A DNA stretch of 63,934 nt, counting the filler, from Rhizaria sp. SCN 62-66 (Eukaryota), in assembly GCA_001724265.1 (NCBI GenBank). It is 3 parts of 3 records of this genome, joined end to end, with 100 filler letters (N's around TTAATTAATTAA, not from the genome) between each part and the next. Parts side by side here need not be neighbours in the genome. Positions count along the whole stretch, not along the records: positions 1 to 24,204 come from MEDY01000474.1; positions 24,305 to 52,571 come from MEDY01000476.1; positions 52,672 to 63,934 come from MEDY01000548.1. One strand, 5' to 3'. The notes below the pieces were generated by a model. It did no database searches, was not told where the DNA came from, and saw only the letters and a list, made by a program, of their open reading frames with translations. Of the stretch, positions 6,895-63,934 are shown piece by piece; the first letter of the stretch is position 1; each line of letters begins with the position of its first letter. A program made the translations under genes and the position numbers.

Positions 6895-6925
<31 letters not shown>

Positions 6926-7781: not shown

Positions 7782-9887
7782 ATGCAGCCCATGTCCCGCG
7801 GTCCGGGCGCGTACCCGCGAACCACGCTCACGCTCGCGCCCGGCCCCAGTCCCGTCACCGTCATTCGCCGCCGCAGCAATAATAACGGTCAGGCGACTGC
7901 GGCGGCGATGACGCCAACTCCAGGCCCAGTCGCAGCACATGCAGCGCCGTAGCCGCAGCACCCGGGCCCCGTGCGCGTTCCTAGTGCCGGCGCCGTCTCC
8001 TCCGCGGCGGGCGCCCCCCGGCCCGCGCTGGGCCCGCCGCGGCCGCGCCCGCTGAGCCGCGAGCTCGCTCTGCTGGCCCTCAGCGAGCCCTACCGGCCCC
8101 CGTCAGCGACGCGCGTCACCCCCACCGTCCCGGCCTACGCCACCGCCTATACCGCGGCCGCTAGCGCGCACGCCGCGGCCGCGGGGCTCGCTGGGGGGTC
8201 GTTCATGTCCTACCCTGACCCCAGCGATTCCGTGTTCGCCGCCGCAAACTCTCATGGGACGCCTCATATGCCGGCTACGGACGCGCCGCCAGTGCAAGTG
8301 CCGGTGAGCACATTTGCGCCGCGCGCGGGCATCGACGCGCGCTCGCTTGCGCCGTACGCCCGCAAGTGGGACGCCGCCGCCGCCGCCGCCAACGCTGCCG
8401 CCAACTCGGCCGCTACCACGACGACCGCCTCAAACGCGACGGCCTCGACTGGCCCTAGCTCTGGTGGGGCGACTGCGTCGGCGTTGGCGCCGCTTGGCCG
8501 CGGCAGGGCGCGGGGCGCTGCGGGATCTGGGGCAGGCGCGGGGTCGCGGGCGGGAGCCAACTCCTCAGCTACGCCAGCTGCAACGGCAGCGACGACGGCG
8601 GCGACGATTGCTGCGGCCGCGAACGCTGCTACTGCAAACGCGGCCGTCGCCGCCGCGCGCGCCCGCTCCTCTGCCTCCTCCACCGCAGGCCCCGGCACAT
8701 CAGTACCAACACCACCTTCGTCTTCATCAACGCCGACAGCCGGTAGATCTAGCGCGAGCACCGGCAATAGCAGCGCTGCAGCCACAGCAGTTGCAGCGGC
8801 GGCGACTGCGGCAGCGGCGGCGACGGCGGCAGCGGCGGCGCGTCGTCCGTCTCGGTCCCGCGTGCGGCCGCCGCGCGCGCGGCTGGATGCCCACGCCCCC
8901 GAGCTGTGGCCCGCGGCCGCGCTGTACCGTGACCGCGACCTGGCCCGCGAGCGTGACCGCGAGCGTGACCGTGAGCCGCCGCACGACGTTACCAGCGCCC
9001 TTAGCAGCAGTGGCGGCAGGCATAGCGGTGGCAATGGGGCGGTGAGCGCGGAGGAGCGCGCGTACGTGCGGCGGCTGCTGGGCGACCGCGGGCAGTGGGC
9101 GCTGGTGGCCTCGCTCATCGACGACGGCGACGACCTTGCCGCCGCGCCCGGCGCCGCGCAGGCCGCCGCGCGTGCCGCCGCAGCGGAAACGGAGGCGGCC
9201 GCGGCAACGCGTGCGGCCGAAGCCGGCGCGAGGGCCCGCGTCGCGGAGCAGCGCGCGCGCGACAGGGCCGCCGCCGAGACGGCGCTGCGCGGCGTGAACA
9301 ACAGCTCTAGTCATCACAGCAGCAGCAACAGCGGCAACAACAGCCACGGCAGTCACGCTAACAGCGGCGTCGAGAGCCAGGGAGCGAGTGCTGCTGCCGG
9401 CGTCAAGTTTGGCGTTGCAGCCGTGGCGGATGCGCTGGATCAAGCCACGGCGCCGCCGCAGTATTTCATGTGCCCTATCACTTTCGACCGTACGTTAACT
9501 CTCTTTGTTCCTTTTTTGTAACACATTCCGTTTGCATTAACTTTCCCATTGCCATTCTCATTTCTCACACACTTGACTCGATTTTCTTTTCGTTTAATCG
9601 TCCCTTACACTGTATACTTTTGCTTGTTTTCGCCACACCTCGCCGCAGTAATGCGCGACCCCGTGGTGCTGAGCGACGGCCACACGTACGAGCGCGTCGC
9701 CGCCGAGCGTTGGCTGCTGCGGCACGATACGTCCCCGATGACTGGCTCGCCCCTGGTGACCAAAGCGCTCACACCAAACCTGCTCGTGCGCGCGATGATC
9801 ACGGACTGGCACGCGGGTGCGGCATTTCCGACGCAGGCACCCAGCATCAGCGCCAGAGCGCGCAAGCATGGGGCTGCGCAGGCGTGA
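7782..9887 (+). CDS. U-box domain protein (E3 ligase), one intron; 5' extension crosses an in-frame TAG
   Basis: Removing intron 9490-9648 (GTACGT...GCAG) gives PPQYFMCPITFDLMRDPVVLSDGHTYERVAAERWLLRHDTSPMT, a U-box. ATG 7782 is in frame but crosses TAG 7950-7952; alternative start ATG ~8205. Stop TGA. Confidence 0.85.
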
Positions 9888-10203
9888 CGTCTGTGCAAGT
9901 GCCTAAATGTAGGAGGCGTGACAGTGGATTCGAAATGCACAACTTGAGTTACATAGAATCAAATTGGATATTTAGCGACAATAATACAATCATGCGTACT
10001 TTTTATGTTCAATTGTTCGGTGACTTCTAATGTTAGAAACAAAATAAAGTATGTATAAATTAATGCGGAGCAGAAACACTGATTACACACTGAACTAAAC
10101 GAAATTAAATTAAAACACTTAAAGATCTTAACAGAAACACTGTTTTCATTATCGAGACACATCACGCGTTGCCGCGCTGTTCTGCTGAGCATGTGACAGC
10201 GCT

Positions 10204-13200
10204 TTACTCGGGGCCGTTGTCTGCGTTGTGCGCCGCAGCGTCAGCCCACTCGGTCGCCGCGCCGGCCTTGCCGCCCAGCGGGTAGGCCTGCGTGTTGGCG
10301 CGCAAGTGCAGCGGCGGCAGCTCGTACGACAGCGCCGAGGCCACAGACGCGTTGGAGCACACCGACAGCGACGTCGGCCTCACCGCCACCGCGCCCACGG
10401 CTGCGGCAGCGGCGGGACCCACGGCCGCGGGCGCGGGACTCGCGGAGGCTCTCGCGTCGACCATGGAGTCCGTCTGCGACGGCGACACCAGCTGCGACTG
10501 CGCAGGCGACAGCGTGAGCGCGCCGCTGCCCGTCGTCGTCAGCGCCGTCGCGCCGGGCGCTGCGCCAGAGCCAGCGCCAGCGGCCGTGGTGTGGCTGAGA
10601 CCGGCGGCGTCAGTCGCGCTGTGGCCGTGGCCGTGGTTCTGGCTCTGGCCGTGGTTCTGGCTCTGGCTGTGGCCGCGGCCAGCGAGCCCCAGAGTGAGCG
10701 AGCCGAGGTCCAGCGGCCCGTTAAGGCCCTCGAGCCCCAGCAGTCCGTGTCCGAGCCCTTGCCCGTGGCCGCTGTGACCATGAGATAGCGAGGCGGAGGG
10801 TGCATACGCAAGCAGCGAGCCGTGTTGGCCCTGCGCCTGTGTCTGCTGTAGCTGCGACGAAGCCTGCGCGTTCGCCTGCAGCTGAAACGGGGACTGCGAC
10901 TCTGTGGGGACTGGCGACGGGGCCGGAGCAGTTAGCGGCGACTGCGACGGCGCGCCAGCGTTGCCACCGCCACCACCGAAGTACCCATGCGCGTGGCCGT
11001 GTGCGGAGTAGCCCTGGCCGTGGGTGTGGCCCGCGTCGAACCCCGCAACGCCGCTGCCGACCGTGGTCGAGCCGGGCAGCGGGTAGCCGCCATGTCCGTG
11101 CCCGTGCGCGTGCGCATGACCGTGGGCGTGGCCGAAGTGACCGTGCGCGGCCTGCGCGTGTGAGAGCGAGAACCCGGTTCCCAGCGCACCCATCCCGCCC
11201 AGCCCAGCGCCGAGCCCGCCAGAGCCCAGGCCACTGGAGCCAAGTCCGCTAGAGCTGAGACCGCCGGAGCCGAGTCCGTTCATGGTGCTGAGGCCCATAC
11301 CCGCGCCGAGGCTGCCGAGGCCGACGCCAACGTTGTTCATGCCTGAGAGGCCACCCAGCCCGTTCATGGAGTTCATCGAATTGATCGAGCCCATGGCAGT
11401 CATGTTGCCCATCGCGCCCATGTTGCCCATCGGGAGCCCGATGCTGCCGAGGCCGAGCCCGCCGATGCCGCCGAGTCCCAGCCCCATGCCCATGGCGTCC
11501 ACGCCGACGCCGACGCTGTGCGCACCGTGGGCACCACTGTGGGCACCGCTGTGGACATTGCTGTGTGCAGCGCTGGGACCGGTGGGGTCGAGCCCGCCCA
11601 CGCCAGTGCTCGCGCCCGAAGCCATGCCGAGCGGGGCCAATGAGAGACCGCCGTGGCCGTGACCGCGACCGTGGCTGTGGACGTTACCGTGGGCATGACC
11701 ATGCGCGTGTTGCGACTGGGCAGAGTGCTGGTACTGTGCGGCGCCGTTGCCGCCAGCAGTGTTGGACGTGCTGGAAACGCTGCCGGTAGCGCTCGCAGCG
11801 CTGTCGGGTCTCGCGGCGAGTCTGTGGCCGTGCGCCCCGTTGCCGTGCGCGAGGCCGCCTTGACCGTGGCCTTGGCCGTGGGCGTGACCGTGGGCGTGAC
11901 CGCCGAGCGCGTACCCGTGCCCGTGCCCGTGACCTGTGTATAACTGGTACCCGCCGTAGGAGTTATGTCCGCTGTTCGCACCGGCGTGACCGTGAGCGGC
12001 GTGACCGTGGGCAGAGTAACCGTGGGCAGAGTGACCGTGGGCGGCGGCGGACAGCGAGAGCGATGGCGCGCGCGATGTCCCGGGCGACGACGACGGCGAC
12101 GACATCTGCATCGGCGACGCCGTGCGCGCGCCGCTAGTGCCAGCGTTGGCATTAACGGTGGCATTGGCGTTAACATGCACACTCGCGCTCGCAGTAGGCG
12201 GCAGCGCGGGAGCGAAAAGCGGGCTAGCGGGCAGCGCAGCAGCGGCCGCGCCGCCTGCGACGGTGATGTACTTGGACTTGCCCTTGCCCGATACCGCAGT
12301 CGCGGCCGAAGCGGCGGCACCAGCGGCGGACGCAGACGCGTACGCACTCATCGCGCCAATCGGATGAACTGCGGACAGAGAGCTCGCCGAGCCGGAAGCG
12401 GCAGCCGCGGCAGCTGAGGGATAATTCCCAGCACCGTTGTGCGCACTGGCAGACCCGCCGTTCGAGCCAGAGCCAGCAGCAGGCCCCGCAGACGCGGACC
12501 CGGACGCAGCAGGTGCAGCGTTGGCGGCGGCGAGCACGGTGCTGTGGCGCAACAGCTCGCGCTCAAGCAGCGCGATCTTCTGCCGCATCGCCGCTTCGCG
12601 CTCACGCTCCCTCTCGCGCTCGCGCTCGCGCTCACGTTCGCGCTCGCGCTCCCTGCGCCGCTCGCGCTCGGCCTCGCGCTCGGCGGCGCGCACGGCGTCG
12701 TCGCGCTCGCGCTCCAGCGCCGCCACGCGCTCGCGCAGCTCCACCTCGGCGCGCCCGCGGCCCTCGCCCGCGCGCTCGGCGCGGTCCAGCCGCGTCTGCA
12801 GCGCCTCGGCGCGCGCCGCGCGGGCCCGCAGCGCGCGCACCTCGGCCGCAGCCTCGTCGCCGGCCGCCAGCGCCACACGCAGCCGCTCCTCGGTCGCCGC
12901 CACGGCCCCGCGCAGCGAGTCGTGCTCGCTGCGCAGTGCGGCCGCCGCGTCATCCTGCTCGCGCACGCGCTCGCGCAGCGCGAGCAGCTGCTTCTCGGCC
13001 TTTTTCTTAGCGGCGGGGCCGAAGGAGCCCGCGGCAACCTCACGGTCCAGCGCGGCCCGCGCTTCCTGCGCCGCTGCCAGTTCGGCGCGCGCGCGCTGCA
13101 GCTCGGCGGCCGCGGCGCGGCCGGCGGCGGCGGCGGTGGCGGACTCGCCCTCGGCCGTCTCGCGCGCGCGCGTCGCCGCGGCCGCGATGGCCGACGCGGC

Positions 13201-16200
13201 GGCGGAGGCAGCGCGCGCCTGTGTAGCGCTGTCGTCGGCCGCGGCGGCGGCAGCGGCCCACCGGCCCGCCTCGCGCGCCCAGCGCGCGCGCAGCAGCGCG
13301 GCGTCGGCGGTCCACACGGCGGCGGCGAGGCGGCGCGAGGCCGCGGCGCGTGCGGCGGCGGCGGCCGTGTCCAGCTCGAGCACAAGCACGCGGCCGTGGA
13401 AGGACCGGTAGCAGTGCGCCAGCGAGCGTAGCGGGCCCTCGTGTGCGAACGCGGCCTCGTCGTCGCTCTCGCCGTCGTCGCCGTCGCTCTCGCAGCAACC
13501 GTCGCCCGGGACGCCAGCAGTGGTCTTGGTCAAACTATGCGCTGCGCCGTCGCGAAGCTCGGTCAGCAGCGCGGCGTCGCGCGCGGGCCGCACGGTCCAG
13601 CGGCCGCGGCGCTCGGCGCGCGTCAGCGCCGCGGCCGCGCCGGCGCGGGCCAGACGCGCGAACTCGCTCGCCGCAGACGCGCGCAGCAGGCGCTGTGCAC
13701 TGCGCCCGCTGCCACCGCCGCCACCGCCGCCATACGCCGCCGCAGCGGTCGTGTTGTTGCTGCTTTTGCTGCCAGTCATTGCGTTGGCGCTGTCGGAGCC
13801 GGAGAGCACAGCGTCCAACGCCTCGCCAGAGGGCTCAGGGGCGGCGGGCACAGCCGCGGCGGCGGCCTCGGCGTCGGCGGCGGCCGCGGCGGGCACGGCG
13901 TGCTGCGCGCGAGAGCGGCGCGCGCCAGCGCCGGAGTGGTATCGTGCGTCATATGCGTTGTCGTGCAGATTGTGGCCGTCGCCGGCGCGGTCCGAGTCGT
14001 CGCAGTCGCTACCGCTCGCGCTATCATTGCTGTCGCTGCCGAGGTAAAAGCTCTCGTCGTCGTCATCGTCGTCATCGTCGTCGTCGTTGTCGTCGAAGTC
14101 GTCGGACGCGTGGCCACTGCGCGCGCTTTTGTTGTCGTCGCCGTCGCTGGCATCGGAGTTGTCCGCACGCAGCTTCGCCAGCAGCGCCGTTTCCGCGTCC
14201 TCCTCAGCGTCGCCACCGCTGTCGCTCTTGTGCTTACCACTGCCGCGCTTGCCGCCGCTGCCGTTAGCGCGCTGCGCCTGCATGCGCTCGATGGCGCGCG
14301 CAACACGGCGCAGGTCACGCTCGTCGCGCCGCCATGCGCGCCAGCGGCGCTCGAGCCGCAGCTGCCGCAGCCAGCGGCCGCCGCCCGCGCGCGCAGAGAG
14401 GTCCACCACGCGCCCGTCGAGCCGCAGGCAGAAGGCCTCCTCGACCGAGAGCGAAGACCGCAGCGCGAGTGTGGCGGTGGCGGCGGCGGCGGCGGACGTC
14501 AGAGCGCGACTGTCACCACAGGTCCCGGCGGTGGCGGCGGCGACGGTGCTGGAGACGAGCTCCGGCGTCAGCGCTACGGTCACAGCGCCGCCGGCGTCGC
14601 TCGCGCTGTTAATTTGACCGTGACTGTCATCGGCGCCGCTGCCGAGAGTGCTGTGGAGCAGCGCGGCGGGGTCGACGCTGATGCCGGCGGCGAGCAGTGT
14701 GCCCAGAGGGTCGCGCGCCGCCGCCGCGGTGGCGGCCACGGCTGCGTGCAGACGCGCGCGCGACGCCCCCAAGCTTGCACTCGCACTTTCACCGCTACCG
14801 TTAGGCCCAGTCACAATGGCAGGCACCGCGGCGGAGCCGGCGATGGATGTGGCCGCTGCGACGGACGCAGCGGCAGCGAGCACGCCGCGGCCCGCAACGC
14901 TGCGCACGAGCGCGCGCTGCGTCGTCGCCGCCACGGCCACAACCACATCGTCCGCACTGCTCGTACCGCCGTAGCTCACCTTGCTGTGACTGGAGCCATG
15001 ATTGTTGTTGTAAGCGGATGTGACGGCGGCGGCGTGCGCGTTGTAGCACGGCTGCAGCGCGCCCGCGGCGGCCGCGGCGGCGGCGCTGGCGGCCGAGGCC
15101 CCGCGCGCGGACGCCGCAGCGGCGCTGGCGGCGGCGACGGCGGCGGCAGCAGCGAGGTGCGCGTGCCAGCGCGCGCGGCGGCGGCGGCGGCACGCGTCGG
15201 CCTCAGCGGCGACGAGCGCGGCCGCGACCGTGGGGCGCATGCCGTGGTAGCTCGCGCCCGCGCAGACGGCCGCTGCAGCGGCTGCGGCGGCGACAGCGGT
15301 TTCGCGCGAGCGGAACGGCGCGGCGGCCGTGGCGCCCGCGGCGGCCGTGGGCGTGGGCGCGGTGATGATCGCGTACGCACGCAGCGCCGCGGCCGCCAGC
15401 GCGGGCTGCCCCGATGCGTGGGACGCGTGGGACACGTGGATGGCGCCGGCGGCAGTGAGCGGAGGGACGGGGAAGAGCGCGGGGCAGTAGCTGCAGTCGC
15501 AGCCAGGCGGCAGCGCAGCGCGCGCGCGCCGCGCCGCCGCAGCGGCAGCTTGAGCAGCAGAGCCGTTTGCACCGCTGGCGTTGCGCGCGTGTGCGTGGGT
15601 ATCGAAGCTGTCGTCGTCGTCGTTGTCGTCGTCGTTGCGCTCGCTGTCGCTGGAGCCTTGGGCGTCCGTGTCGGCGTCCGCATCGCGGCGCGCACGGCGC
15701 GGACGCGGCGCCAGCAGCAGCGCGTCAGCGCACCCGCACGTGCACCCGCACTCGAGCTCGCCGCCGGCGCCGGCGCCCAGCAGCGGCGGCGGCAGTGTGG
15801 ACGCGGCGCCCACTGCGGGTGTCGTTGTTGCGGCCGACGCAGAGCGCGCAGCGCGGGAGCGCGACGCGGACGCAGCAGCTGTTGCAGCAGCGGCAGCCGC
15901 GGCGGCCGACTTGCCCCCCTTGCCATTCGCAACTGCGGCCGCAGACGCAGCCCCATTGCCGGAGCCGTTGCCGGTGAGCGCGTGCGCGTGCGCGCAGGCG
16001 CAGGCGGCGCACTGCGCGCAGCCAGCGAGCGTGACTGGCCCCGCGCACGCAGCCTGTGCACCGTAGCCGTAGAGCGCGCTGAAGGCCGCGCTGTGCGGGT
16101 GCGCCAGCGCGGGCGCCGCGTCGCAAAACGCGCACTATGCCGGCGCGGACGCCGCAGCGCTCGCGCCGTGCTGCTGCTGCTGCTTCTGCTGTTGCTGCTG

Positions 16201-16248
16201 CTGCTTTCCGTGCGACTGCGCGCGCTGTTGCTGCTGCTGCTGTTGTTC

Positions 16249-16296
<48 letters not shown>

Positions 16297-16524
16297 TTGT
16301 TGTTGTTGGCGGACGTGCATGCGTGCCTGCGCGTGCGCGGCGGGCGGGAGCGTCCCGTCGGCGCGCGTGAGCAGGTGGAAGGCGAGCACGTCGGCCAGCC
16401 GCAGCGCGGGGTGGACCTCGTAGACCACGCCCGCGCCCGAGCCGCCGTCGCGGATTGTCAGCGAAACCGGCGGCAGCGGCGTGAAGCCGCCGCAGGTGCT
16501 GTGCGGCGGGGGGCCACCACCGCC

Positions 16525-16562
<38 letters not shown>

Positions 16563-19500
16563 TGCCGTTGCCATTGCCAGCGCCTTCGTCGTCGTCGTCA
16601 CCGCCGTCGCCGAGGGGCTCGCCGGACGGACGATCGCTGTCATTATTGCTCTTATTGTCATTACTGTTGTTGTTCTTGATGTCTTCGTTGTTGCTGTTTC
16701 CGTCAGTGTCAGCTTTGTTACTGTTGCTGACGCTGCGACCGCTCCCGCTACTGTCACTGTTGGCAGCCCGCTTGGCACTCACAGTACAGGTGGCAGGCGT
16801 GCTCACAGTCACATGGCCGAGCCCACAGTCAGTGCCGTGCTCACGGTCAGTGCCGCGCTCATGGTCAGGGCCGAGCTCATGGTCAGGGCTGAGCTCACGG
16901 TCAGAGCCGCTGTCGGCCTTGCACTCAACCGCATCGCCCCACCACTGCGCCGCATTGACCGCGTTGACCGCATTCACCGGGCCGTCGCCGCCTGCTTTCA
17001 CGCGCAGCACGCCCGCGGTCGCCGCGGCGATGGCCACAGTCAGTGCGTCGCTTTCGCCGCCCGCCACGGTCTCCGTCACCACAGCCGCGACGGAGACGGA
17101 GCCCGCGGCGGCCGCGGCTATGTCGGCCGCGCCGCGCCGCTTGAGAGCCGACGCGGCTGTCACAGCGCTGTTGCCAGGCCCACGGCCACTGCCACTGCGG
17201 CCGCGACTGTTGTCGTTGTTATTGTCATTACGTTTGTCACTAGAAAGCGTCATCGTCGCCGGCGGCGTCAGTGCAAGCCCCGGTGCGGTGTTGAGCCCCA
17301 ATGCGGCGGCGCCGGGCGGCGTCAGCGCCAGCAGCGCCCGCTCCAGCCACGCGCGGTCGCAGCCACGGCCAACCTCTACATCTGCTGCGGAGGCCGCGGC
17401 CACAGTGTACCGTGCTGTGTCTACGTGGTAGTCCGCAGCGGCGTCGGCCAGGTCGCCATCAGCGTCAGACTTGGCTTCGGACGCGCAGCGGCGCCGGCCT
17501 CCAGTGGTGACGCTGCTGTCGTTGTTATTCTTGTTCAAATTGCGTTCATTCATGTGATTGTTCTCGCGCCCGCAGCGCTCATTGCTCGCGCCAGCACTCC
17601 CCTTGCCTTTCCAGTCACCAATACCACCGTTGGCCTTGCTCAGCGAGCGCGCGTCTCCCCCGGTCCCCGTCGTCATCACCGCCTTCCTCCCCTTCGCATC
17701 CACCTCCATCTCGGCGTCGTCTGGACTCGCACTCGTCTTCGTCTGGGTCTCAACCTCAGCTTCTGCTGTAGCCTCGGCCTCAGCCTTAGCCTCGGCCTCT
17801 GCGCGTAGCTGCTCTTGCGCAGCGCGCGCGGCGGCCCGCAGCGCGGCGGGCGGCATCGCAGGCACCGACAGCGCCGTCAGCGTGCTCTGAGCCGCCGCGG
17901 CCGCAGCCGCAGCGGCTACGGACCCCTGCCCGTGTCCAGCGCACTCATCGTCAGCCTCCAAGTCGAGTCCAAACCCCAGGCCCAGTCCAAGTTCGGCCTC
18001 CGCAGCAGAGCAGCCGTCAGCCCTAGTCGCAGTTCCAGCGGCGGCGGCAGCAGCGCCGGCGCCAGCGCCTGCGGCAGTGCGCAGCGCGCCCGCGCCCGTC
18101 GCCACACTGTGCAACACTCCACTAGCTGGTGAGCCCGACGACAGCGCAGAGGCCGAGACGGCGGCGGAGACGGAGGCGGAGGCGGCCGCAGCAGCGGAGG
18201 CGGAGGCGGAGGCGGAGGCGAGGAGCCCGTTGAGCGCGTCGAACGGGGCCCGAGCCAGTGCGCTGAGGGCCGTGGCGGCGGCCGTGGCCGCGGTCGCGGC
18301 GGCCGCGGCAGCAGCGGCCACTGCGGCGGCGTCAGGCCCACTCGCGTGCGCCGCCGAGCCCTGGCCGTGGCCAACAGTATGCGCAGACCCGGTCACAGCT
18401 GCAGCCGTAGTCACAGTGGCCGCCGATGTGGCCGGCGCAGTCGCGTTTCTAGTGGCATTCGAGGAATTGGATGCGTGGAGCGCAGAGCCGGCGGGGGAGT
18501 GCGCGGCTGTGGCGACAAGGCCCTTGGCGCGCGCCGCCCCCGTCTCGCTACTATGGCCGCCGTCGTCCTCGCTCAAGCCGTCCGTGTCGGTCTCAGTCGC
18601 CTCAGCGCAGTCCGCACACTGCGTCGAGTGCGCGAGAGCCTGCGACGGCGGCGGCGGAGGCACGGCCGCGGTGGCGGTGGCGGCGGCGGCGGCCAGGATG
18701 CGTGCAACCAGGTCGTCGAGCGCAGAAGTTAAACCGCGCATGTCGGCGGCCGAGAGCAGCGCGCGCGCAATGCGGGCCAGCCCCAGCCGCAGCCCCCAGC
18801 GCGAGGGCCGCGCGGCGCGGTACGTCCGGTGCCCAGGGTACCCGTGGTGACCGGTTCCCGCGCCGCCGCCGCTAGCAGCGCTTAGGGGGTGTGGGTGGGA
18901 CCGGAGGCGGGCGCGCGCGTGTGGCGGCGGGCCCCCCGAGCTCCGACTGTGAGCAGCGGAGGCCGAGTGACCATGGGCCGAGTGACCGTGAGCAGCGGAG
19001 GGCGCGGGGACAAACTGGGGCGCAAAATCGTCTGCGAAGATGAGGTACAGGATGAGCAGCACGGCGGGCACGGCCAGCAGCTGCAGCCACGGGAACGTAA
19101 ACGCACCCATAGCACTCGCAGCGTCCGCAGCAGCGGCGGCGGCAGCGGCAGCAGAGTCGGCGGCGGCAGTGGCGGCGGCGTCAGCGGCGTCTAGAAGCAC
19201 GTGCTCGCTCGCAGCGTCGGCAAGCGCGCCCGCAGCAGCAGCAGCAGCAGCAGCAGCCGCCGCAGAGGTGGCAGCGGGGCCAAGAGAGGGCGCTGGCGCA
19301 CTGGCTGCAGCTGCGGGCGCGGCAAGTGCGAGCGCAGAAGCAGCTAAGTCTGCGGCGGCCGCGAGGCTGAGCGTGAGCGCGGCCGAGGACACGGCGGCCG
19401 CGGTCGCGTCGGCGGAGGCGTCCGTGGCCGCAAACGAGTAGCCGGCGCCGGCAACGGGGGCGGCTGAGGCAACTGGCGCAGATACTGGCGCGGGCGCAGC

Positions 19501-19854
19501 GACGGACGCGGCGACGGGTTTGCGGGGCGCTGCAGCAGATGCAGCGCCGTCTACGTACTCCAACGGCTGTGGGAGCTGCTGGAAAGCGTCAAGGGGGGCG
19601 GGGGCGCCGCTGCGGGATCCATGGCCGCCGCTGCCGGCGAAGGCTGCGGGGGACGGGGCCGGCGGCGGCGGCGCGGCCGGGACACCTCCGGCGCCGGGCG
19701 GCGCGGGGGTGTCTTTCACTCTGGCGCACACGTCTGGGCTGGAAAGCCCGAGACGAGACAGAACCTCGCACGCCACGCGAGGACCTGACATCTGTGGGGG
19801 TGTGGAGGGGCGCGGGCGCCGTACGCAAAATTGGATGGCAAGGAATGAGAGCAT
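10204..19854 (-). CDS. Very large low-complexity protein (~3200 aa) with hydrophobic segment, poly-Q, coiled coil, (RE)n and His/Gly repeats; one in-frame TAG
   Basis: ORFs 16135-19854 and 10204-15813 are in the same frame, separated only by TAG 16135-16137 plus 107 open codons. Stop TAA. Start uncertain (19854 or ATG 19791). Confidence 0.7.
16225..16308 (-). repeat. (CAG/CAA)n poly-glutamine tract
   Basis: (CTG)n/(TTG)n run on + strand, in the coding frame. Confidence 0.9.
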
Positions 19855-21233
19855 GGTTTTAGAGCGGCTTTAGCATCCTAGATTTAAGAGCACAGTGTGC
19901 ACAACTAGAAACATGAGTGAAAAACCTTAAATGAATCATCGTCTTAAAACACAATCACATAATCATATTCGTATATATCGAGTGGGGATGCCACAGGACT
20001 ATTTCCGAAATTCGTGTTGCTGCCACGGTCAAGGAGCCACCGCCACACACCGTCAGTCTGCGGCAGCAAGCGCACAAAGTAAATGTAATAATATGCTCCC
20101 CAAACACCGTTGCTACGGTTGAAAGTTGCGTGGTGCAATTTTTCCCAGCGCGGCATATGTTGGATTCTTTTTCGTTTTGAGTATCTAGCTCTCGTTCATG
20201 CGTGCTGGGGCTCTCATACGTGCGTGCTGAGGCTGCGCCGACTGTTCGTTGTGCCCTCAGACGTTTGCCGGTCTGTGCTGCGCTCGATGAGCAGCATGGG
20301 ACGAACTGAAGTCCTACCATGGCAGTTGTGCGGCTCTGTGACTCCTTTCAGGTGTGCTTACGACCGACAGTATGCCCTGGAGTCCTCCAGTCAGCCATGC
20401 TCAACGATTCGATCACCTCGACTCCCGCTGAGTCGCGCAACTCATATAACGGCCTCGATTGACCGCGCCCCGTTGTTTCGGGATGCGGTCTTTGTGCTGG
20501 AGGATTATTCTGTATGTTTGCTCTGTATGTCTGATGGTGCAATAATGTTGATTCAGTTAACCCTATACCGTCGACAACGTAAGTCGCCGGCCATACGACG
20601 TGCAAATCTTGGCCATCAAAATGCGTTCGAGTCAACTCTTGCGCGTCAAATGCGAGAATGGTGTTTCGTGAACGATGCATTAGCTTGAATCAGTTACTGC
20701 ACTGTTAATTTCTGTTTTCTTTCAAGTCAGTATGTACACGGTATCATGCATCAATGTCTTTATTCTTTAAAAAGACTGTTCCCTTCTCGAACTTGATGAT
20801 GAGAGGCGGGGGTTGACTTGAATGCACAGAGCAATGAACAGACACGCATAAACAAAACAATACATTAAGCAACGAGGGTATCTTTTCGGCATGTAAACAT
20901 TGATATTCCTGCAACAGTGTTTGATTATATCTTGCCAAAACTCCGAATAAATATGTCTGAGTCAAGCTACGTCGCTCGCCCTCGTCACGGTGCACGTAGT
21001 AACTCGCCAGTCTACGGTTAGTCCACGGTTGAGATTTTTAAATGTATGCTCCTCGGTGCATAGTATCGTCAAGTGGAATCAACACCAGTTTATTCGTTCT
21101 TTTGTCTTCTTAATAGTGTTTACCCAATTTTATATTGTGAATCTGACTGCTTATTATGAGATATCGACAATGGTGTGAAGCCTCAACCAACCACTTGCTT
21201 CTTCATGGTTCCTCTTTACTTGCCGCCGACAGA

Positions 21234-24204: not shown

Positions 24205-24304
24205 NNNNNNNNNNNNNNNNNNNNNNNNNNNNNNNNNNNNNNNNNNNNTTAATTAATTAANNNNNNNNNNNNNNNNNNNNNNNNNNNNNNNNNNNNNNNN
24301 NNNN
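24205..24304. other. Artificial contig linker
   Basis: N-run flanking TTAATTAATTAA (stops in all six frames). Genes are truncated on both sides. Confidence 0.97.
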
Positions 24305-39812: not shown

Positions 39813-40481
39813 GCACGGAGCGACACTTTGCTGTGCGCCGCGCAAAATCAACGGCAGCAGAAGCGACAACGCACGCGCTGCTGATGCTGTAATGTAACTT
39901 GAGAGCTTTTTTGTTTGTTTGAGATAAGCTTTGAGCTGAGAGAAGGAGAAAAGGATTGAACGACTGCAGTTGCTGTTGTTGCGCTGCGAAAGCGCGAACG
40001 CAGACTGCGTCGTGGTATTGGCTTTTTAAACCAAGTCTGCGCCATATGAGATGAGATGGCGAGATCGATTGGCGGACCGCGGAAATGCGGCCGCTTTTTA
40101 TAGAGTGAAATTGCTCCGGGTGTGTGGTGAATATCACAGAACCGCAGTTGCGTTTCCTTTCTGCAATAATACAATACGTGTCATTGTCACCTTTAGTCTT
40201 TGTTTTCACTTATTGTGTGAGAGAGTATCATCATGCGTTGTATTGTGATTGATGTGAATTGTAAAATTGCATTGACTTGAAAGCGTGGGGGGGATAAATG
40301 CATCAAAAGCTGCGACACTTAAAAACTGTGATCAAAAGCGTTTAAAAAAAAGGAACAAACCAGACAAACTTGTTTTTAAAAGAAGACCTCAAACAAAACC
40401 GAGCACACTGTTTGTTTCCGCTTCACTTCACTTCACTTCACACTGTGTATCATGCATCTGGCGATGCCTTTCCCTCTGGCC

Positions 40482-43400
40482 TTACTTGAGGTCGCTGCAA
40501 ATGGCCACGGGCGTGAAGTGTGCCCTGTCCCTGCCCCTGGCGGCGTCGAAGATCTCCAGATCGGGAGCGTGGAACCGGTACAGCATGCGGAGCGCCATGA
40601 GCCCCTCAGCGTTGAGGCTGTAGTGGGCGACGCGGACGGCCGTGAGCGACTCCGAGAGCTCGGCCAAGTGCGTGACAGCGGCTGCGCCCTCGACGCCCAC
40701 GGGGCAGTCGCCCAGGTCGAGCGTGCGGAGCGCGGGGGACCAGGCCAGGGCGCGGGCCAGCGCCACCGCGCCCGCAGCGCCGAGCCCCGCGCAGCCCCGC
40801 AGCGAGAGGTGCGCCAGCCCAGTCGCCGGGAAGCGGACGGTGGGGACACCGGCCGCGGCGGCGGGGGCCGCGGCGGGGGGCGCGGGCGGCGGCGGGGGCG
40901 GCGGCGGCGCCGGATGGCCGCCAAGAGCGCCGCCGGCGCCAGCGCCGAGGGGCACGGCGACCGAGGCGCGCGACGCGAGCAGCGACGGCGGCAGCCCGTG
41001 CTGCGCCCAGCGCGCGATGGCCGTCGCGCCGGCGTCGCCCACGGCCGTGGCGTCGAGAGCGAGCGAGCGCATGCTGTCGCCGGCGGCGGCCGACGCGCCC
41101 AGCAGCGCGGCCAGCGCGGCGGCGCCGGTGTCGCCGAAGCCGCCGTTGCCGCTCAGCAGCACCGTGCGCAGTGCGGAGTAGACGAAGCCAGCGCCACCGC
41201 CGTTGTTGTTGCTGTTTGCGGCGACAGCGCGCTCGAGGGCGGCGACAAAGGTGTCGGTGACACCCGCGCGCGAGAAGTCGAGCGTGGCGACGCGGCGCTG
41301 CGCGGGGTTCGCCAGAAGCGCGGCGAGCAGCGCGGGCAGCTCGGGCACGGCGGGCAGCCACGCGGCGTCGGCGAAGCTGATCTCCTGCAGCGCGGGCAGC
41401 GGGTGAGCGGCGAGCGCGCGCAAGAGGCAGTCGGCGGCGACCGAGTCGAGCGGGACACGACCCGCGCGCAGCGCCGCCACGGGCAGCGCGTCGCGGTCGC
41501 CGATGAGCGTGGCGAGCGTGGACGCGGCGTCAGGCGCGAGCGCGGGCCCGTCGAGGTCCAGCGCGTGGCACTGCACCGCGGGCCACGCGGCGCGGCCGAG
41601 CGCGGCGACGGCCTCGGACGACGGCGCGGCGCCGGCCGCGGCGGCCAGCAGCGCGGCGTTGTCGCCCACGGCGCAGGCGGACGCGATGTGCAGCAGCTCG
41701 GCGCCCGGAACCGGCACGAGCGACGCGGCGTGCACTGGCGCGAGCTGGGCCGCGAGCGCGGGCGGGAGGTGCGCCGCGGTGACGGCCATCGCGGCCGGTG
41801 CGAAAAGCTGGACGTCGAACGCTCGCACGACGCGCGCGTCCATGGGCACGTTCTGCATGCGGCAGCGGCGCATGTACTCGGCGTTGGCCACGCGCGCGCG
41901 CAGCGCAGAGAGCCAGCCGCGGTGCGCCAGCACGGGCTCCGGCGGCGGCGCCAGCGCGCCGGGGCCACTATTGCCTCCAGCAGCAGCGGCGCCGGCGCCG
42001 GCGGCAGCGGAGAGCGAGCCGTAGCTGTTGCCGTGCTGCGGGGCGCGGACGGGTGCGCCCACGGCAGCGGCGGCGGCGGCGGCGTGCTCGGCGCGGAGCC
42101 AGATCTTGGCGCCCTTGTCGACGGTGAGCACGATGTGCGCGCCCGCGGGCGAAGAAGGGTCGTCGAGCGCGGTGACGAGCGCGCCCTTGAGCTGGACCGA
42201 GCCCTTGGGCTTCGAGTCGCCGCAGCGCGCAAAGAGGTCAAGCCGGTCGCGGTGCAGCACGGCCCAGCGCAGCCCCCAGCCCTTGGCCATGAGGTCGGAC
42301 GAGTAGCCGACGGGGCCGGCGATGAAGACGTCTGCTTCGGCGCGCGCACGCGGCATCGGCGCGGTGAACGCGGACCCGTGCGCGGGCGCAGCAGCAGCAG
42401 CGCCGCCATGGGAGGGTGAGCTTGGTCCGCCCGCCGAAGAGGAGGCGGCTGCGGCGGCGGCGACGGCGGCGGCGACGGCGGCGGCGGAGTTGGTGGACGC
42501 GTCGATGGCTGCGAACAGCGACTCGAACCGCGCGAGCGGCCGCGCCCGGGCGGCGTTGGCGGCGGCGTTGGCGGCGGAGGGCCCTGTGGCGGCGGCGGGC
42601 CCGCGGCCGGCGGCGGCGGTGGCGGCGGCGGCGAGCTCGGCGCGGCGGCGAGCTCGGCGGCGGCGACAGCCTGCGCGCGGTCCGCGAGCGCGCGCAGCAG
42701 CTCGGCGCTGCGCACGGGCGCCACTGCGGTGCCGCCCAGCCCCGGGGTCACGATCGGGCCCGCCGTCGACGCCGACGCGTGCGCAGTCACGGGCGCGGGC
42801 GCACTGGAGGCGGCAGGGGCCGGAGCGGCGGCGGCGGCGGCGGTGATGGGGGGCGGCATGCGCGGGGGCTGGAAGATGCTGCCGGAGCGGTCCTTGTTTG
42901 CAGCGGCGGCGCTGGCGTCAGGCGCAGCAGGTGCAGCAGGCGCAGCAGGCGCGGGGGACGCGGCAGGTGCAGGGGGGGAGGCGTGGCGGGCAGCGGCCTC
43001 AGCCTCAGCCTTAGCCTTGGCCTCTGCCTCGGCGGCGGCCTCAGCGGCGGCCTCAGCGGCGGCGGCGTCAGCGTCAGCCTTCTCCTTGGCAGCAGCGGCC
43101 TCGGCGGCGGCCTCAGCCTCGGCAGCAGCGGCGGCCTCGGCGTCAGCCTTGGCCTTGGCGGCGTCGGCCTCAGCCTTGGCAGCAGCAGCGGCGGCCTCGG
43201 CAGCGGCGGCGGCAGGAGCGGCCGCAGCAGCCTTCTCCTTCTCTTCCTCCGCCGCAGCCACCGCAGCAGCAGCAGCAGCGGCAGCAGCGGCGTCATCCTC
43301 AGCAGGCGGCGCGGCGGGCGCGGCGGGGGCCGCAGGCGCGGGGGGAGCCGCAGGCGCGGGGGGAGCCGCGGGGGCAGCGGGAGCCGCAGGCGCGGCGGGC

Positions 43401-44348
43401 GCTGCAGGGGCAGCAGGGGCGGCGGGAGCGGCAGGGGCCGCGGGGGCAGCAGGGGCAGGGACTGCGAGGTCGACGTCCTGCGTGAACGTGGCCTTGGGCA
43501 TGGCGTGCGCGCGCTGGCCGCTGCCGGGGGCGCGCTTCATGACGACGCCGCGCGAGAAGTGCTGCATTTGCCCCGCAGCAGGGTCCGCAGCGTGCGGCGG
43601 ATGCTCGGCGCCGCTGTGACTCGCGGACATCGATGATGACGACGATGATGATGCGGGCGCGGGCGGCGCGGGCGGCGCGGCGGGCGCGGGCGGGGCGGCG
43701 GGCGCGGGAGGAGCTGCAGGGGCGGCGGGCGCGGCGGGCGCAGGCGGCGCGGCGGGGGCGGCGGGAGCGGGGTGATGGCCGGCGGGCAGAGACGGAGGCG
43801 CGGCGGGAGCAGCGGGCGCGGCCGGGGCCGGGGGCGCAGCCGCGGCCGGAGGCGCGGCCGGGGCAGCTCCCGGGAGCGGGGGCGGGGCGGCGCCGGTGTG
43901 AGCGTGTTCAGCGGGCGCGGCGCCACCGGCGGCTGCGGCCTCTGCGGCGGCCTTCTCAGCGGCTTCCTTCTCGAGCTGCTTCTTGCGCCACGGGGGCACG
44001 TCGCCCGGGCGCAGCATGCCGGGCTGCAGAGAGCGTCGGGGAGCAGCAAAGAGCGAACGAGAGGGCGATGAGAGTGAGGTCAGGAGAAGGTTTCGTTTCA
44101 GGTGAGGGCAGGTTTCATCGGATGTACGTGTGAGAGATGCGTGTAATGCGATGCTGTCACGGGGAACATAACGAATACAAGTCAGGTCATACGCCCACAC
44201 TCGTTATAAGTCGTAACAACTCGTTTAGAGGGCATGGGGGAGAAAAACGTACCATCCCAATGGCTCCTGCACTGAGCAAAGATGCACTTAGCTTGGCGAT
44301 CTTGCCCGCTTGGGCATCCGCTTGATGTGAGTCAGCCGCGTCAGACAT
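40482..44348 (-). CDS. Pro/Ala-rich N-terminus + PH domain + RNI-type LRR protein; one intron and an apparent 1-nt frameshift
   Basis: Exon 1 44253-44348, intron 44024-44252. PH-like KGWGLRWAVLHRDRLDLF...KPKGSVQL. LRRs TVLLSGNGGFGDTG, HLSLRGCAGLG, TLDLGDCPVGVEG. Frame changes near 42642. Stop TAA. Confidence 0.75.
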
Positions 44349-52571: not shown

Positions 52572-52671
52572 NNNNNNNNNNNNNNNNNNNNNNNNNNNNN
52601 NNNNNNNNNNNNNNNTTAATTAATTAANNNNNNNNNNNNNNNNNNNNNNNNNNNNNNNNNNNNNNNNNNNN
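52572..52671. other. Artificial contig linker
   Basis: Same N-TTAATTAATTAA-N spacer as at 24205. Confidence 0.97.
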
Positions 52672-55587: not shown

Positions 55588-55804
55588 TGACGGGCCTTTG
55601 AAGAAGAATAATTTTTCATAAAATAAATTAAATGAGTGCGTCTATTCAAAAAGTGTTGTATCATTCTAAAATCACGATGTTTTGTGTGCTATATACAATT
55701 TGGTTTTTGCTCAATGTGGTATCTCACGATCGCGCCGCAGGACCACAAATCGCATTCTTCATCTTTCCAACTCGTTTTCACTTCTTTCACTCTCTCACAA
55801 GCCT

Positions 55805-58800
55805 TCAATAGTACAACATAGTAACGCCCTTGCGCGCGTTTAGCCATGCCTGTGCCCTAATCCGCTCGCGCTCATGTTCTGCCCACAAATCCCACTTGTT
55901 TTCGATTGCATTTCCCTCACGTTGCTTCTTGTTACTTTCGCCAGCAGCCACTGGTTGCGCCTTTGTTGCAGCGCCAGCATCAATCTCGGCTCCGCACATC
56001 GCACCAGACTCATTGCGTCGGGCACGTGCGCATTGAGAGCCAGTGTTGCGACTGCTGTTCTGATTGCTGCAGTGACCATGTTCGTGATTGTTCCGACATT
56101 GATTGCGACAACTGTTGTGGCCGTTCGAAACGCAACAGCCATGATTTGTGCAAATAGTCACGGTGTGCGTGTGCGTAACAGGAGCAGGCGCAACACCGAT
56201 TGCAGCCGCAACAGGCACGGGTGCAGGCGCAGGCGCAGGAGTAACATGAGTTAGGGGAGTGGCGATTGCAGGAATTGTGTTCGTGATGGTTTGCGTCGGC
56301 GCAGTCGCTGGTGCAGTGTTGTTCATGACGGGACTCACGGTCACCGTCACCGGCGCGCCGCTCACAGTCACAGGCGCGGCGCTTAGAGTGACCGGCGCAG
56401 AGTTCACAGTCACCGGTGCAGCGTTCACAGGTGCGGGAGTCGCAGTCGCCGGTGAAGCAGGTACTGGGGCGGGAGCAGTGTCGACTGTCACGGTCACCGG
56501 CGCAGCGCTAAGAGAGACAGGCGCGGCGCTGTTGGTGACAGTAATAGGCGCCGCATTCTGCGTAATAGGAGAAGAGTTGTGCATTGTAGTCACGGGAGTC
56601 GTGCTGTTGCGACATACTGGCTCACCGGCGCTGTTGACACAAGGCACAGCTGAGACACTGGAGCTTGCGGCGAGTTCAGCGCGCTGTTCATCAGTGCTTA
56701 CAGTGCCAGCATCGAGACTGTCTTTGTCTTTAGCCGTACACTTCGTAGGACCAAGAGCAGCAGCTGCAGCTGTAGCCACGGCTTTGGTAGCGACAGCAGC
56801 AGCTTCAGAAGCGGCTTCCGCGGCGGCGCGAGCTGCGCTGGCCGCTGCGGTCGCTGCAGCAGTGGCGCTAGCAGCGGCAGCTTCAGCAGCTGCAACACGT
56901 TGCTCAGTCGCAGCGCAAACAGTGTTTGTACTCATGCTCGCAGTCGCAGTATGGATGGTTGAGCTGGCGACGTTGGCATTGTTGATGTTGAGATTTGAGT
57001 CGTCATCGCTGCGCTGATCACTCTAACCACGATTGCGCTCAGTACTGGGGAGAGCGAAGTCATCGCGAACGTTAGCAGCGCCCGACTCACACACTGAAGT
57101 AATACTCTACACTCGCAGATCCGCGTTCACAGGCTCGACCGTCACCCGCTGCCCGAGTTGCACAGCAGGCACTGCAGTCGCGGCAGACGCTGTAGAAACT
57201 GCAGGAGCTGTCGCCGGCGCAGCGCCCGTGTTGCCGCTGCCAATGTTCACGCTGGCCCCGGAGCTGGCAACCACAAATACGCCGCCTGGCGCAACGGTGA
57301 AGGACTGCGCGCCGCCGGCAGCGATGCTGGAGCCGGAATCAGCGCCGGCGCCAGCGCGGGCGTTGCCGTGGCGCGCGCCGGGACTGCGACTCTGGCTGTG
57401 GCTATGATGATGTGAGTGACCGTGCTTGTTGCTGTAGTCGCAACCGCGATCGTGACGACGACTGTGGCCGTGGCCGTGGCCGTGGCCGTGGACATGGCTG
57501 TGGTCGTGATCATGGTTGCGACCGTGATTGTATCTCGGACTGTGGTTTCTGTCATTGTGACGACGGTGATGATCGTAGCGATGAAAACTGTCGTGAAAAA
57601 CACTGCCATAATCGCCGTTGTTGCAATGGCTGGGGATGGGGTTGCGGCTTGCAGCGTTTCCGTCGTCAGCGCCTGCGTTGTAGCCACCGTTGCGGTTGAT
57701 CGGGTGAGAGTCGTTATCGCTCTCAGAGGGACGCAGTAAGACGCTGACATCAACGCAATCGCTTCCGCTGCTCTTGCTAATGTTGTCCTGGCTATGCATG
57801 CTTTCGTTGCAAGTGCCATGATTGTTGCCGTTGCGACTGCCAGAGCTGCGACTGCCGTCACTAACGCGGTCATCGGCACCAGCGCCAGCACCAGCAGTGG
57901 CGGGAACTGGCGCAGGCCGATGCGCGTGCGCGTGCATGTGAGCGTGGGCAGGAGTGAGGGCAGAGGCGGTGGCGCTGCCGTTGGCCGTCATAGTCACGTT
58001 TGGAGACTTGCCACCACTGCTTGAGCTGCACTGACTGTGGTTGCCGTTTCTACTGCTTGTGCTGCTGCCACTGCTGTTGTTGCTGCTGCACGGAACCGAG
58101 CGCGACTGCGAGCGTGACTGCTGTTGGTGCTGTTGCTGTTGCTGAGGCTGCTGCTGCTGATCTTGATGGTGATGACTGCGACTGTGAGTGGATTCACCAT
58201 GATCTGACCACAGCTGGCCATGAGAGCGCGGCTTAACTAAGCTCAGAGGCGGCTTAACAAACCGAGAGGACTGTGGGTACAAGCCCTCATAGCCGACATG
58301 ACCCCCTTGCTGCTCGTAGTAGTCGCTACCATCATCATCGAAGTAGCTCCCCTTCGCAGCAGTTGTTGGGGTGGCGTCGAGAGCGGCCTCTGAGCGCGCG
58401 GCCTCGGTGTGATGAGAGAGCGCGGCCGCGGCTGCCAGCGCCGAAGAAGAGGATGACACGACTCGTCGAGCCGCAGCCAGTGCGGCCGCCATCGACGCGT
58501 CCAGTGACGCTGTCGACTGCGTGGGCGAGGCCACAAAGCGCGACTGCTGCGGAGAGGACTTCGCTTGTAACTGTGGGTGTGTTTGCGAGTGTGATTGAGA
58601 GCGTGATGACTGTGACGGAGTGGGCGTCAAGTGACCACGATTCTCAGCAGCTGCAGCCGTAGCCGCACTGATGTCGTTGAGTTTGTCGCGCGCGACACTG
58701 CGTTTGCTGTTGACACTGGCAGCGCTCTTGTCGTCATTGTTGTCCTTATCGCTCTTGTGGTTTGAACGAGAGCGAGGAGCAGCGATTCGAGTAGTCACAA

Positions 58801-60733
58801 CACCAACACCGGCATCTACAGCAGCACCAGTGAGGTTTCGACCGGAGCTTAGGCCAGGACCAACGCTGACAACGCCAGCGCTTGCGTTCGACTCTGAGTT
58901 TCCATTGGTGTCAGCAAGCTTTTGTTGTTGTTGCAATGTAATTCTCTTGACTTGCGCCGACTGAGACGACACAGAAGACGATGACGAGGAGGACGCAGAA
59001 GGCGAGTACGTCGAGACAGGTGCAGTCGCAGCTGCGTTGCCGTTGTGCTTCTGAACGTCCTTATTGTAGCGCATGTACCTGTCACTGTCACCACTGTCAT
59101 TGTTCGGGGCAAAGCAAGGCATCGACTGAGCGCCGGGCGTCGCGGCCAGACCGCCGTTCTGCAGCTGCTGCGGCTGCTGCTCTTGGACCACAACCGGCAT
59201 AGCTCCACGGTCGCTGCCATTGCTGCTGCGCCGACTAGAGCTCGAGGCAGCGTCGCTCATGCGACTAAGCGTGTCTTGACCCACCTGCTGCTGTTGCAGT
59301 TGCTGCGGCGGTGGACTCGTGTTCGGTTTGCTTGGGTTCTTCAGTACATGCTTGAGCGACTGCGCTGCTGACAGCGGCGGCGACGGCCGCGGCGACCTCT
59401 GCTGCTGCGACTGAAAGGCCGCGGCAGCGCCGATAGTGATCCCGGTCACGGACGAGCCCACCATGCTGCCGTCGTCGCGCCAGAGCTTGGCCCGCAGCGC
59501 GCGCGCCCAGGGCTCGTCGCCCCTCTCCAAGTCGAGCTCCTCCGAGTCGCTGCCGCTGAGAACAGACGCGTTCGCAGCAGCAGTCGGCTTGGCAGCAGAC
59601 GTGTCGTTTGCGCCTGCGCTTGCGTTGTCGTTGGAGGTAAGCAAGGTCGTATCGGTCGCGTTTGCAGCTTGTGCCGCGCTGGCAGCTGAGTTAGCGTCGT
59701 TGAGAACGGCAGGAAAGCGGCGGCGCAACTCTTCAATCTCAAACAGCGCGGCCTCGGTCGCGGCGGCCCTAGACAGCGCGGCCGTTGTGTTTTCACAATC
59801 GGTGCCGCTGCCGCTACGGTTGTTGGGACTGGTGTTGCTGTCAGCGGTGTTGTTGGGGTCGGCATCGATGAAATGACTGATGTTTGTGTTGAGGGTCGCG
59901 TCACCTGCGTTGATAGCGCTGAAATTACCGCTGTTAACGTGACTGTCGTTAATAACGCGGGAATTGCGATCGTTAAAGGGACTAGCACTAGTAACAGCAC
60001 TCTTAACTCTCACCTTGCTACTGTTGTTGGTATTAACGTTACTGGTGTTGTCTGCGGCAGGACGGGGCTTTTCGTATAGCGCGTGCAACGCACGCGACTT
60101 TTCAAGCGCCTTGGCCGCCTCGGCCATCACAGCGTCCTGATACTCGTCGGTGGTGTACGCCGCCGGAAGCGGAGACGCTATAAGCTCCTGCCGCTTTTGT
60201 TCCAATCTCTGTTCAAGCTGCTGCTGCAGCTGCTGCTCCCGCTGCGACTGCCGCTGCGCTTGCAACTGCGCTGGCAGAAAAACAGAGCGCCCCGCGCTGG
60301 TGCTCGGTGCTGCTGTGAACGCAGTCGTTGTCGTCGCCGGTGCTGGCGCCGTCGCGGCAGTTGATGTGTGAGGGGGGGTCCACTGCGTCGGCGGGTCCGT
60401 TTTGAGCCCCCAGCGGGCGGCGTAAGCGTCAAGCTCCTGCTGCAAGGCTGCTGCAGCCGCCGCAGTGTCAGCGGAAGTTGGCGAAAGCGATGACGAGCTT
60501 GAGGATCCACTGCCAGTGGTGGCGTTTGCGTTGGTGCTGACACTGATGCCGGTTTTGGAGCCGACAGGATTTGGCAAGATCGGGCTACTGTAAGGCAGAA
60601 AAGCAGGCGGTGGAGCGCCAAAGTTCTCAATTTTCCATGCTGCAGCAAGGCTTGCGAGACTCTCAGAGAGCATGGCGTCCTCTAAACCTGGCGATGCTGC
60701 GTTGTTGGGAGTGGCGGGACCAGAGTCTGCCAT
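55805..60733 (-). CDS. Large low-complexity Ser/Gln/His/Thr-rich protein (~1640 aa); two in-frame TAGs
   Basis: ORFs 57107-60733 and 55805-56935 are in the same frame. The 174-nt gap has only TAG 57107-57109 and TAG 57023-57025 as stops. Stop TGA. Confidence 0.7.

Positions 60734-63865: not shown

Positions 63866-63934
<69 letters not shown>
63866..63934. repeat. Compound (TG)n(AG)n microsatellite
   Basis: Direct reading of the window end. Confidence 0.95.

Follow-up and report, generated by a model that had tools for sequence, protein, structure and literature searches.

In-frame UAG in long genes of an uncultured sludge eukaryote: a possible UAG-only change of the nuclear code with very low UAG usage

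Few nuclear genetic codes give UAG a meaning other than that of UAA: fewer than 10 lineages are on record in the available text of two reports (PMC5304391 and PMC11687900). Such codes bear on the reasons for the usual coupling of the two codons. Within that text, the sainouroid rhizarian exLh reads UAG alone as leucine, with 384 in-frame UAGs at leucine positions of 71 conserved genes that end only in UAA (56) or UGA (15), and Iotanema spirale reads it as glutamine, with 204 in-frame UAGs in 126 genes and UAA (104) or UGA (15) as terminators (PMC5304391). UAG-only codes are further described for Protocruzia (Gln), Scotinosphaera (Ser), and three phyllopharyngean ciliate lineages (Leu, Gln, and Gln) (PMC11687900). 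The present work concerns a window of 63,934 nucleotides, the whole stretch of DNA analyzed, which comes from the assembly of Rhizaria sp. SCN 62-66 (GCA_001724265.1) and consists of three contigs joined by runs of N at 24205-24304 and 52572-52671. Five TAG triplets interrupt otherwise open frames in four of its genes. An initial annotation had proposed that UAG is a sense codon here while UAA and UGA remain stops, and it had listed the known UAG-only codes incompletely, naming neither Scotinosphaera nor Protocruzia nor the phyllopharyngean ciliates given in PMC11687900.

Our analysis upholds this proposal in part. It is backed by an environmental homologue, P0141, in which one of the interrupted genes is a single protein, and by controls on coding score and splicing, whereas translation of UAG, the decoding mechanism, and the amino acid are what we infer, and TAG is very rare. 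On balance, we hold it to be reasonably probable that UAG is translated as sense in this organism and does not act as a terminator, a claim with few codons behind it. The ribosome would then translate UAG by means of a tRNA with a CUA anticodon or, alternatively, by a near-cognate tRNA together with a release factor that recognizes UAG poorly, while UAA and UGA would terminate genes. UAG is nonetheless very rare: it occurs in linkers and in long, fast-evolving stretches of low complexity, where it would be tolerated, but in none of the conserved, highly expressed genes. This distribution fits a stop-to-sense change of UAG alone that is still early, or that comes at a cost.

Like exLh (Sainouroidea), as far as that organism is described in the available text, the source of the window is a non-ciliate, uncultured protist with UAG as the only in-frame “stop” and with UAA and UGA at gene ends. 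Unlike exLh, it has just 5 TAGs in about 13,900 codons, none of them in a conserved domain, and the one site that can be aligned matches Lys and not Leu. Sainouroids are described as free-living or dung-dwelling (PMC5304391), and a wastewater relative is conceivable. A sense UAG with UAA and UGA as terminators would also be shared with Iotanema (Fornicata), but that organism is portrayed as an anaerobe, whereas the window encodes 5-aminolevulinate synthase (ALAS) and the C terminus of an aconitase, and no TAG here aligns with Gln. With the phyllopharyngeans, Protocruzia, and Scotinosphaera, the window would have in common that UAG alone is reassigned and that UAA is the preferred stop (here 9 of 15 gene ends); in contrast to it, those lineages are reported to use sense UAG widely, with suppressor tRNA genes in two genomes (PMC11687900). 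In the open-access literature, supplements aside, we found no report of a UAG-only code in activated-sludge eukaryotes. If real, this code would be a further UAG-only case, unusual for its very low UAG usage. A GC-rich, non-ciliate lineage (GC, guanine plus cytosine) in which UAG has left the gene ends yet is nearly unused would, if this holds true, show an intermediate state that is seldom seen and over which codon-capture and ambiguous-intermediate models argue. The bolder version, namely early codon capture in a non-ciliate sludge eukaryote, with UAG gone from gene ends and reappearing as a sense codon, possibly for Lys, strikes us as unlikely.

Coding signal across the five TAG sites

The TAGs are real, and all five stand where the initial annotation had placed them, at 7950 (+), 16135 (-), 29249 (-), 57023 (-), and 57107 (-). 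The triplet at 7950-7952 (+) is near the 5' end of a U-box protein gene, with 99 open codons before it and 522 after it; the one at 16135-16137 (-) lies in gene P0001 between 1244 open codons upstream and 1976 downstream; and the one at 29249-29251 (-) follows 587 open codons of gene P0002 and precedes at least 1648, the frame reaching the contig end. Gene P0003 harbors the remaining two, the first at 57107-57109 (-) (1208 open codons before, 27 after) and the second at 57023-57025 (-) (27 before, 405 after, at 59% GC). By the same measure, the frame remains open for only 1 to 121 codons after 13 TAA or TGA ends of open reading frames (ORFs).

Beyond the TAGs the frames continue as coding sequence. 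We trained a codon-usage score on seven other ORFs of the window and read it in frame over 60 codons. Following the five TAGs it takes values of 0.18, 0.41, 0.42, 0.42, and 0.49, while the two remaining frames are negative; following 15 TAA or TGA gene ends it is -0.17 to 0.21. The four strong sites (16135, 29249, 57107, and 57023, in three genes) account for the values of 0.41 to 0.49, and together with the weak site at 7950 they place internal UAG in multiple independent genes, with sites on three contigs. The earlier statement that all five TAGs show an open frame and coding-like composition on both sides is thus strong for four of them and weak for TAG 7950. Apart from the TAGs, 7668 codons of the TAG-bearing genes contain neither TAA nor TGA nor a frame break. 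A windowed sense-versus-antisense score, used to check the strand of each of these genes, favored the assumed strand in every window scored (21 for P0001, 14 for P0002, 10 for P0003, and 3 for the U-box gene). No Pfam domain was found at any of the five TAG sites, and BLAST of the TAG flanks against all ORFs of the window returned low-complexity matches only.

P0001 (10204..19854, -) encodes about 3200 residues of low-complexity protein, rich in Ala, Gln, His, and Gly and in one stretch resembling a coiled coil; the gene ends in TAA and its product has no match in Pfam. TAG 16135 comes just after a (CAG)n polyglutamine tract, beyond which the coding score is 0.41 in frame versus -0.50 and -0.52 in the other two frames, and past the TAG the frame reaches its first ATG after 298 codons. 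The (CAG/CAA)n tract itself (16165-16300, -) encodes about 45 glutamines and stops 11 codons before the TAG. We also considered P0001 as the antisense shadow of a plus-strand gene, in which case its TAG would be the antisense of CTA, and rejected this, the minus frame being open over all 9.6 kb and favored in every scored window. Codon-aligned antisense frames of GC-rich genes do stay open for up to 1458 codons in this DNA, for example at 12418-18132 (+) and elsewhere within 1-20000 and 40000-44200; they are broken mainly by TAG and form a trap for any ORF-based reading of the genome.

P0003 (55805..60733, -) codes for a low-complexity protein of 1642 residues, ends in TGA, and likewise has no Pfam match; a whole-length homologue search scored 7999 low-complexity candidates, none of them significant. 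Its two TAGs lie 27 codons apart, and the 81 nucleotides between them are 54% GC with an in-frame coding score of 0.28; the score over the 60 codons after TAG 57107 is 0.49. The U-box protein gene (7783..9887, +) has one intron at about 9490-9648 (GTACGT...CAG), a TGA stop at 9885, and a U-box domain (PF04564) that extends across the intron (E = 1.9e-14). Here the TAG is a weak site: it is found 56 codons after the ATG at 7783, with the next ATG 84 codons downstream, and the coding score is 0.11 before and 0.18 after it.

No gene of the window ends in TAG. The initial annotation had counted 16 gene ends, 9 TAA and 7 TGA; we could assign 15, which confirms the 9 TAA and the lack of TAG and lowers TGA to 6. 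The ends of the aldolase gene (aligned to its last residue), of the aconitase C terminus, of the U-box gene, and of the RING domain gene are backed by homology, the others not. Since TAG makes up 637 of the 3195 stop triplets in all six frames of the window (20%), finding it at none of 15 ends has a probability of about 0.035, in what is a small sample.

Seven introns were found, one in the U-box gene, two in the aldolase gene, three in the cathepsin gene, and one more at 47105. All start with GTACG (donors at 9490, 21685, 22407, 22638, 38397, 38758, and 47105; six GTACGT and one GTACGA), a uniform 5' splice site that might help to place the organism. Spliced RNA contigs, joined at 38396>38616 and 38757>38929, confirm both aldolase introns. 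The introns that the initial annotation had put at 130 to 300 nucleotides are real, but the six that could be measured span 155 to 380 nucleotides, at 40 to 49% GC within exons of 60 to 80% GC. Exons of 70 to 80% GC and introns of this length starting with GTACGT are unlike those of ciliates. None of the GTACG donors stands in a frame-preserving register with any TAG, and the lone GTACGT upstream of 29249 (at 29652) would make a 404-nucleotide, out-of-frame intron. Removal of the TAGs by introns is thus unlikely.

The giant surface protein gene P0002 and TAG 29249

The strongest of the five sites is TAG 29249. It lies in P0002 (24305..30940, -), which encodes a secreted, Thr/Ser-rich giant protein and whose 3' end runs off the contig; the protein consists of a signal-peptide-like N terminus, an N-domain, a duplicated linker that carries the TAG, and a repeat domain, and it has no match in Pfam. 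The flanks of the TAG are 58% GC. This TAG is reproduced in other assemblies from different studies and years: a DNA contig of a separate study (X3; 3413 nucleotides at 27927-31339) and a metagenome contig (L001; over 3252 nucleotides) both match the window without a single difference, the latter being the only contig returned by a metagenome scan for the region. In a further contig (X4; 27422-29676), one letter differs from the window, at a place that is not listed.

We refer to the P0002 frame before and after TAG 29249 as ORF1 and ORF2, respectively. A search with 1200 residues spanning the TAG against 1.84 billion representative proteins yielded P0141, an environmental protein of 1596 amino acids found on contigs of up to 58 kb, which begins with the same hydrophobic, signal-peptide-like N terminus. 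With 48% identity over 1244 columns, the single uninterrupted ORF of P0141 aligns to query residues 1-460 and 511-1200 and covers sequence on each side of the TAG, from which we conclude that ORF1 and ORF2 are one gene. ORF2 alone, being Thr/Ser-rich, would by its predicted sequence features be without an export signal. A search with the 501-residue TAG junction, limited to proteins of similar length, retrieved only the window's own ORF1, and a search of the ESM Atlas with ORF1 gave a best score of 0.89, under the useful range. Gene callers using the standard code ended proteins at this TAG, as seen in P0004 (555 amino acids) and P0131 (563 amino acids). Such calling cuts long genes at TAG, so that the proteome of this organism is fragmented in public catalogues.

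The TAG falls within a linker segment of about 47 residues which, together with the segment following it, forms a diverged tandem pair, and this makes 29249 the only one of the five sites that can be aligned. In the three-copy alignment (...VVNMKTTAV-TAG-PDND versus ...VVNMTTAAV-K-SEGD versus ...VVNMSTAAL-K-SDND), the TAG is opposite Lys in both comparators, namely the second repeat copy of P0002 and P0141, which are not mutually independent; the codon at this position of the sister repeat is AAG. This one aligned site suggests that UAG may stand for Lys, with Gln or Glu as further possibilities, and AAG>TAG may simply have been the mutational path. The usual near-cognate insertions at UAG are Gln, Tyr, and Lys. 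The initial annotation had left the choice between Gln and Leu open because no TAG falls in a conserved domain; none does, but 29249 can be aligned, and it matches Lys and neither of the two. In the available text of PMC5304391 and PMC11687900, the nuclear meanings of UAG are Gln, Leu, Ser, and Glu, with Lys given for UAA only, so UAG as Lys would, if true, be a nuclear meaning not reported there.

P0002 belongs with P0141, P0142, P0145, and P0147 to a family of giant, secreted, Thr/Ser-rich proteins that share the N-domain, have no Pfam match, and come from environmental assemblies only. For two proteins, P0146 (149 amino acids) and P0142 (737 amino acids), the longest contig is in each case 60,490 nucleotides, and the two may come from a single additional family member that is likewise interrupted. 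At the 3' end of P0002, 24467-25050 is variant in runs X3 and X4, with 26 listed differences in about 590 nucleotides (10 synonymous, 16 nonsynonymous, and no new stop); this could be a strain or a paralogue, and since the differences are too few and possibly paralogous, they do not demonstrate selection.

Translation of UAG weighed against other explanations

Several observations speak against UAG being translated, and the foremost is its scarcity. From position-specific base composition, as for a free sense codon, 66 TAGs would be expected in the four TAG-bearing genes, where 5 are observed, and 51 in the 6216 codons of the other ORFs, where there are none. UAG is therefore no ordinary sense codon of appreciable frequency, its usage being under a tenth of the expectation, and such strong avoidance also suits a codon that still terminates; if UAG is sense here, it is young or costly. 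Long open flanks have limited weight as well. Single stops with at least 200 open codons on each side within stretches of 75 to 80% GC comprise 4 TAG, 2 TAA, and 3 TGA, the TAA and TGA cases being non-coding or antisense frames, so open frames alone are weak evidence at this composition; when at least 400 open codons are required on both sides, TAG 16135 and TAG 29249 are the sole stops left. The earlier claim that no comparable TAA or TGA break exists accordingly holds for the 7668 codons of the TAG-bearing genes but not for these non-coding or antisense frames. Moreover, random one-step nonsense mutations in these genes, which are GC rich at third codon positions (GC3 rich), would by their codon usage yield TAG in 55 to 59% of cases, so a set of five stops that are all TAG (P = 0.05 to 0.07) is no strong evidence by itself. 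Confirmation by independent assembly extends to TAG 29249 only; the TAGs of contigs 1 and 3 were not observed again, and exact look-ups of seven ORF versions from these two contigs found none in the collection searched. P0141 has a single copy of the linker segment and lacks the copy that bears the TAG, so the duplicated linker might hold a truncating allele. TAG 7950 may be in a 5' leader, with a downstream start possible. The tRNA scan of the window found 0 genes, and the eRF1 gene is absent from it. Among the RNA contigs listed, all on contig 2, none bridges a TAG. Pieces of a polyA-RNA library do lie on ORF2 of P0002 (24305-24826, 25051-25493, 26775-27053, and 27845-28345), but the same library includes an unspliced aldolase intron (38724-38991), so these pieces could be DNA or pre-mRNA. 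RNA-library cover is zero in bins upstream of P0002 (30975-32308), which we did not use as evidence.

These points invite explanations that keep the standard code. UAG might be a normal terminator genome-wide that is passed in these genes by site-specific or leaky read-through, giving short and long products; its extreme rarity in frame is that of a usual terminator, the base next to two of the five TAGs is C (which at +4 is the leakiest stop context), and P0003 has two TAGs in tandem. We nevertheless consider read-through unlikely, given that none of the 15 gene ends uses TAG, that a CARYYA-type motif, a read-through context, follows none of the five sites, and that, judged by the comparison with P0141, extensions of 405 to 1976 codons would carry the bulk of the protein, for which we know of no precedent. 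Alternatively, the TAGs could be genuine premature stops in long, low-complexity genes that are dispensable, either as nonsense alleles of recent origin or because the genes have lately become pseudogenes. The bias of nonsense changes in GC3-rich genes toward TAG would suit this, as would the lack of a Pfam domain in all TAG-bearing genes but the U-box gene and the position of TAG 29249, one base from the sister-repeat AAG in a linker copy missing from P0141. With 7668 codons otherwise free of further stops and frameshifts, however, inactivation would mean that, out of about 17 genes, three or four had each undergone one or two very recent changes, always to TAG. The coding signal is undiminished after the TAGs, the absence of TAG from gene ends would be a coincidence, and assemblies made in different years by different studies agree on TAG 29249, all of which makes premature stops improbable in our view.

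A further alternative is that the TAGs are removed or altered in the RNA, through unconventional in-frame splicing or through adenosine-to-inosine (A-to-I) editing of UAG to UGG. A segment of 90 nucleotides at 57112-57023, a multiple of three bounded by GTGTAG...GGTTAG, would excise both P0003 TAGs, and it has GT..AG ends, a CTAAC-like motif, and a GC content below that of its upstream flank; TAG 29249 is part of GTTTAG, the acceptor of both aldolase introns, and the 86 nucleotides before it are 44% GC. Against splicing, all seven known introns start with GTACG and those measured reach at least 155 nucleotides, the 57112 donor is unlike this consensus, GT..AG pairs around 29249 checked by eye included none that keeps the frame, and both suspect segments score as coding in frame, at 0.28 and 0.48. 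As to editing, restorative A-to-I editing of in-frame UAG is described for Fusarium and Neurospora (PMC10776026, PMC4817773), where, in the available text, the genome likewise has in-frame TAG only and full-length protein is made, and in Fusarium it rescues 71 pseudogenes (PMC10776026). Those fungi, unlike this organism under our reading, are described as keeping the standard code, with editing to UGG (Trp) that is stage-specific and touches a small share of their genes. In the window, the residue aligned at 29249 is Lys and not the Trp that editing predicts, and out of about 17 genes three or four would be affected, far above the Fusarium rate (71 genes in its genome). In a check for A-to-I editing, none of the RNA contigs listed lies over 29250, and no differing letter is listed there. 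Taken together, we regard splicing or editing as very improbable and retain translation of UAG as sense as the favored reading.

Gene content and further features of the window

The public runs that contain DNA of the window are bioreactor, wastewater, and activated-sludge metagenomes, and its source is an uncultured eukaryote assembled from sludge. Base composition is very uneven, with long exons of up to 70 to 80% GC and introns and spacers of 40 to 50% GC. Rfam gave 0 matches, and 18S is absent from the window. Identified genes encode cathepsin L, a 5'-nucleotidase, a class I aldolase, an aminotransferase, and a cytidylyltransferase-like protein; further ones encode the U-box protein, the aconitase C terminus, a ribosomal P protein, a RING protein, an LRR/PH protein, and a HABP4-like protein. 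The aminotransferase is ALAS (E = 6e-142 against a solved ALAS structure). Both ALAS and the aconitase, which the initial annotation had called mitochondrial and of which the C terminus is present, were recovered, as was the aldolase. The closest aldolases to that of the window share 79, 78, and 75% identity with it.

The spliced aldolase mRNA (38320-39812, +) is among the better-covered pieces of X9, a run of wastewater cDNA (depth 44.7 for a 1105-nucleotide contig), which indicates that the organism was transcriptionally active in that sample. At 40482-44203 (-), two long ORFs overlap in different frames, one of 811 amino acids with LRR and PH matches and one of 1016 amino acids with no match, suggesting an intron or a frame change in one gene. 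Finally, a (GT)n/(CA)n microsatellite is located at about 63880-63934, at the end of contig 3.

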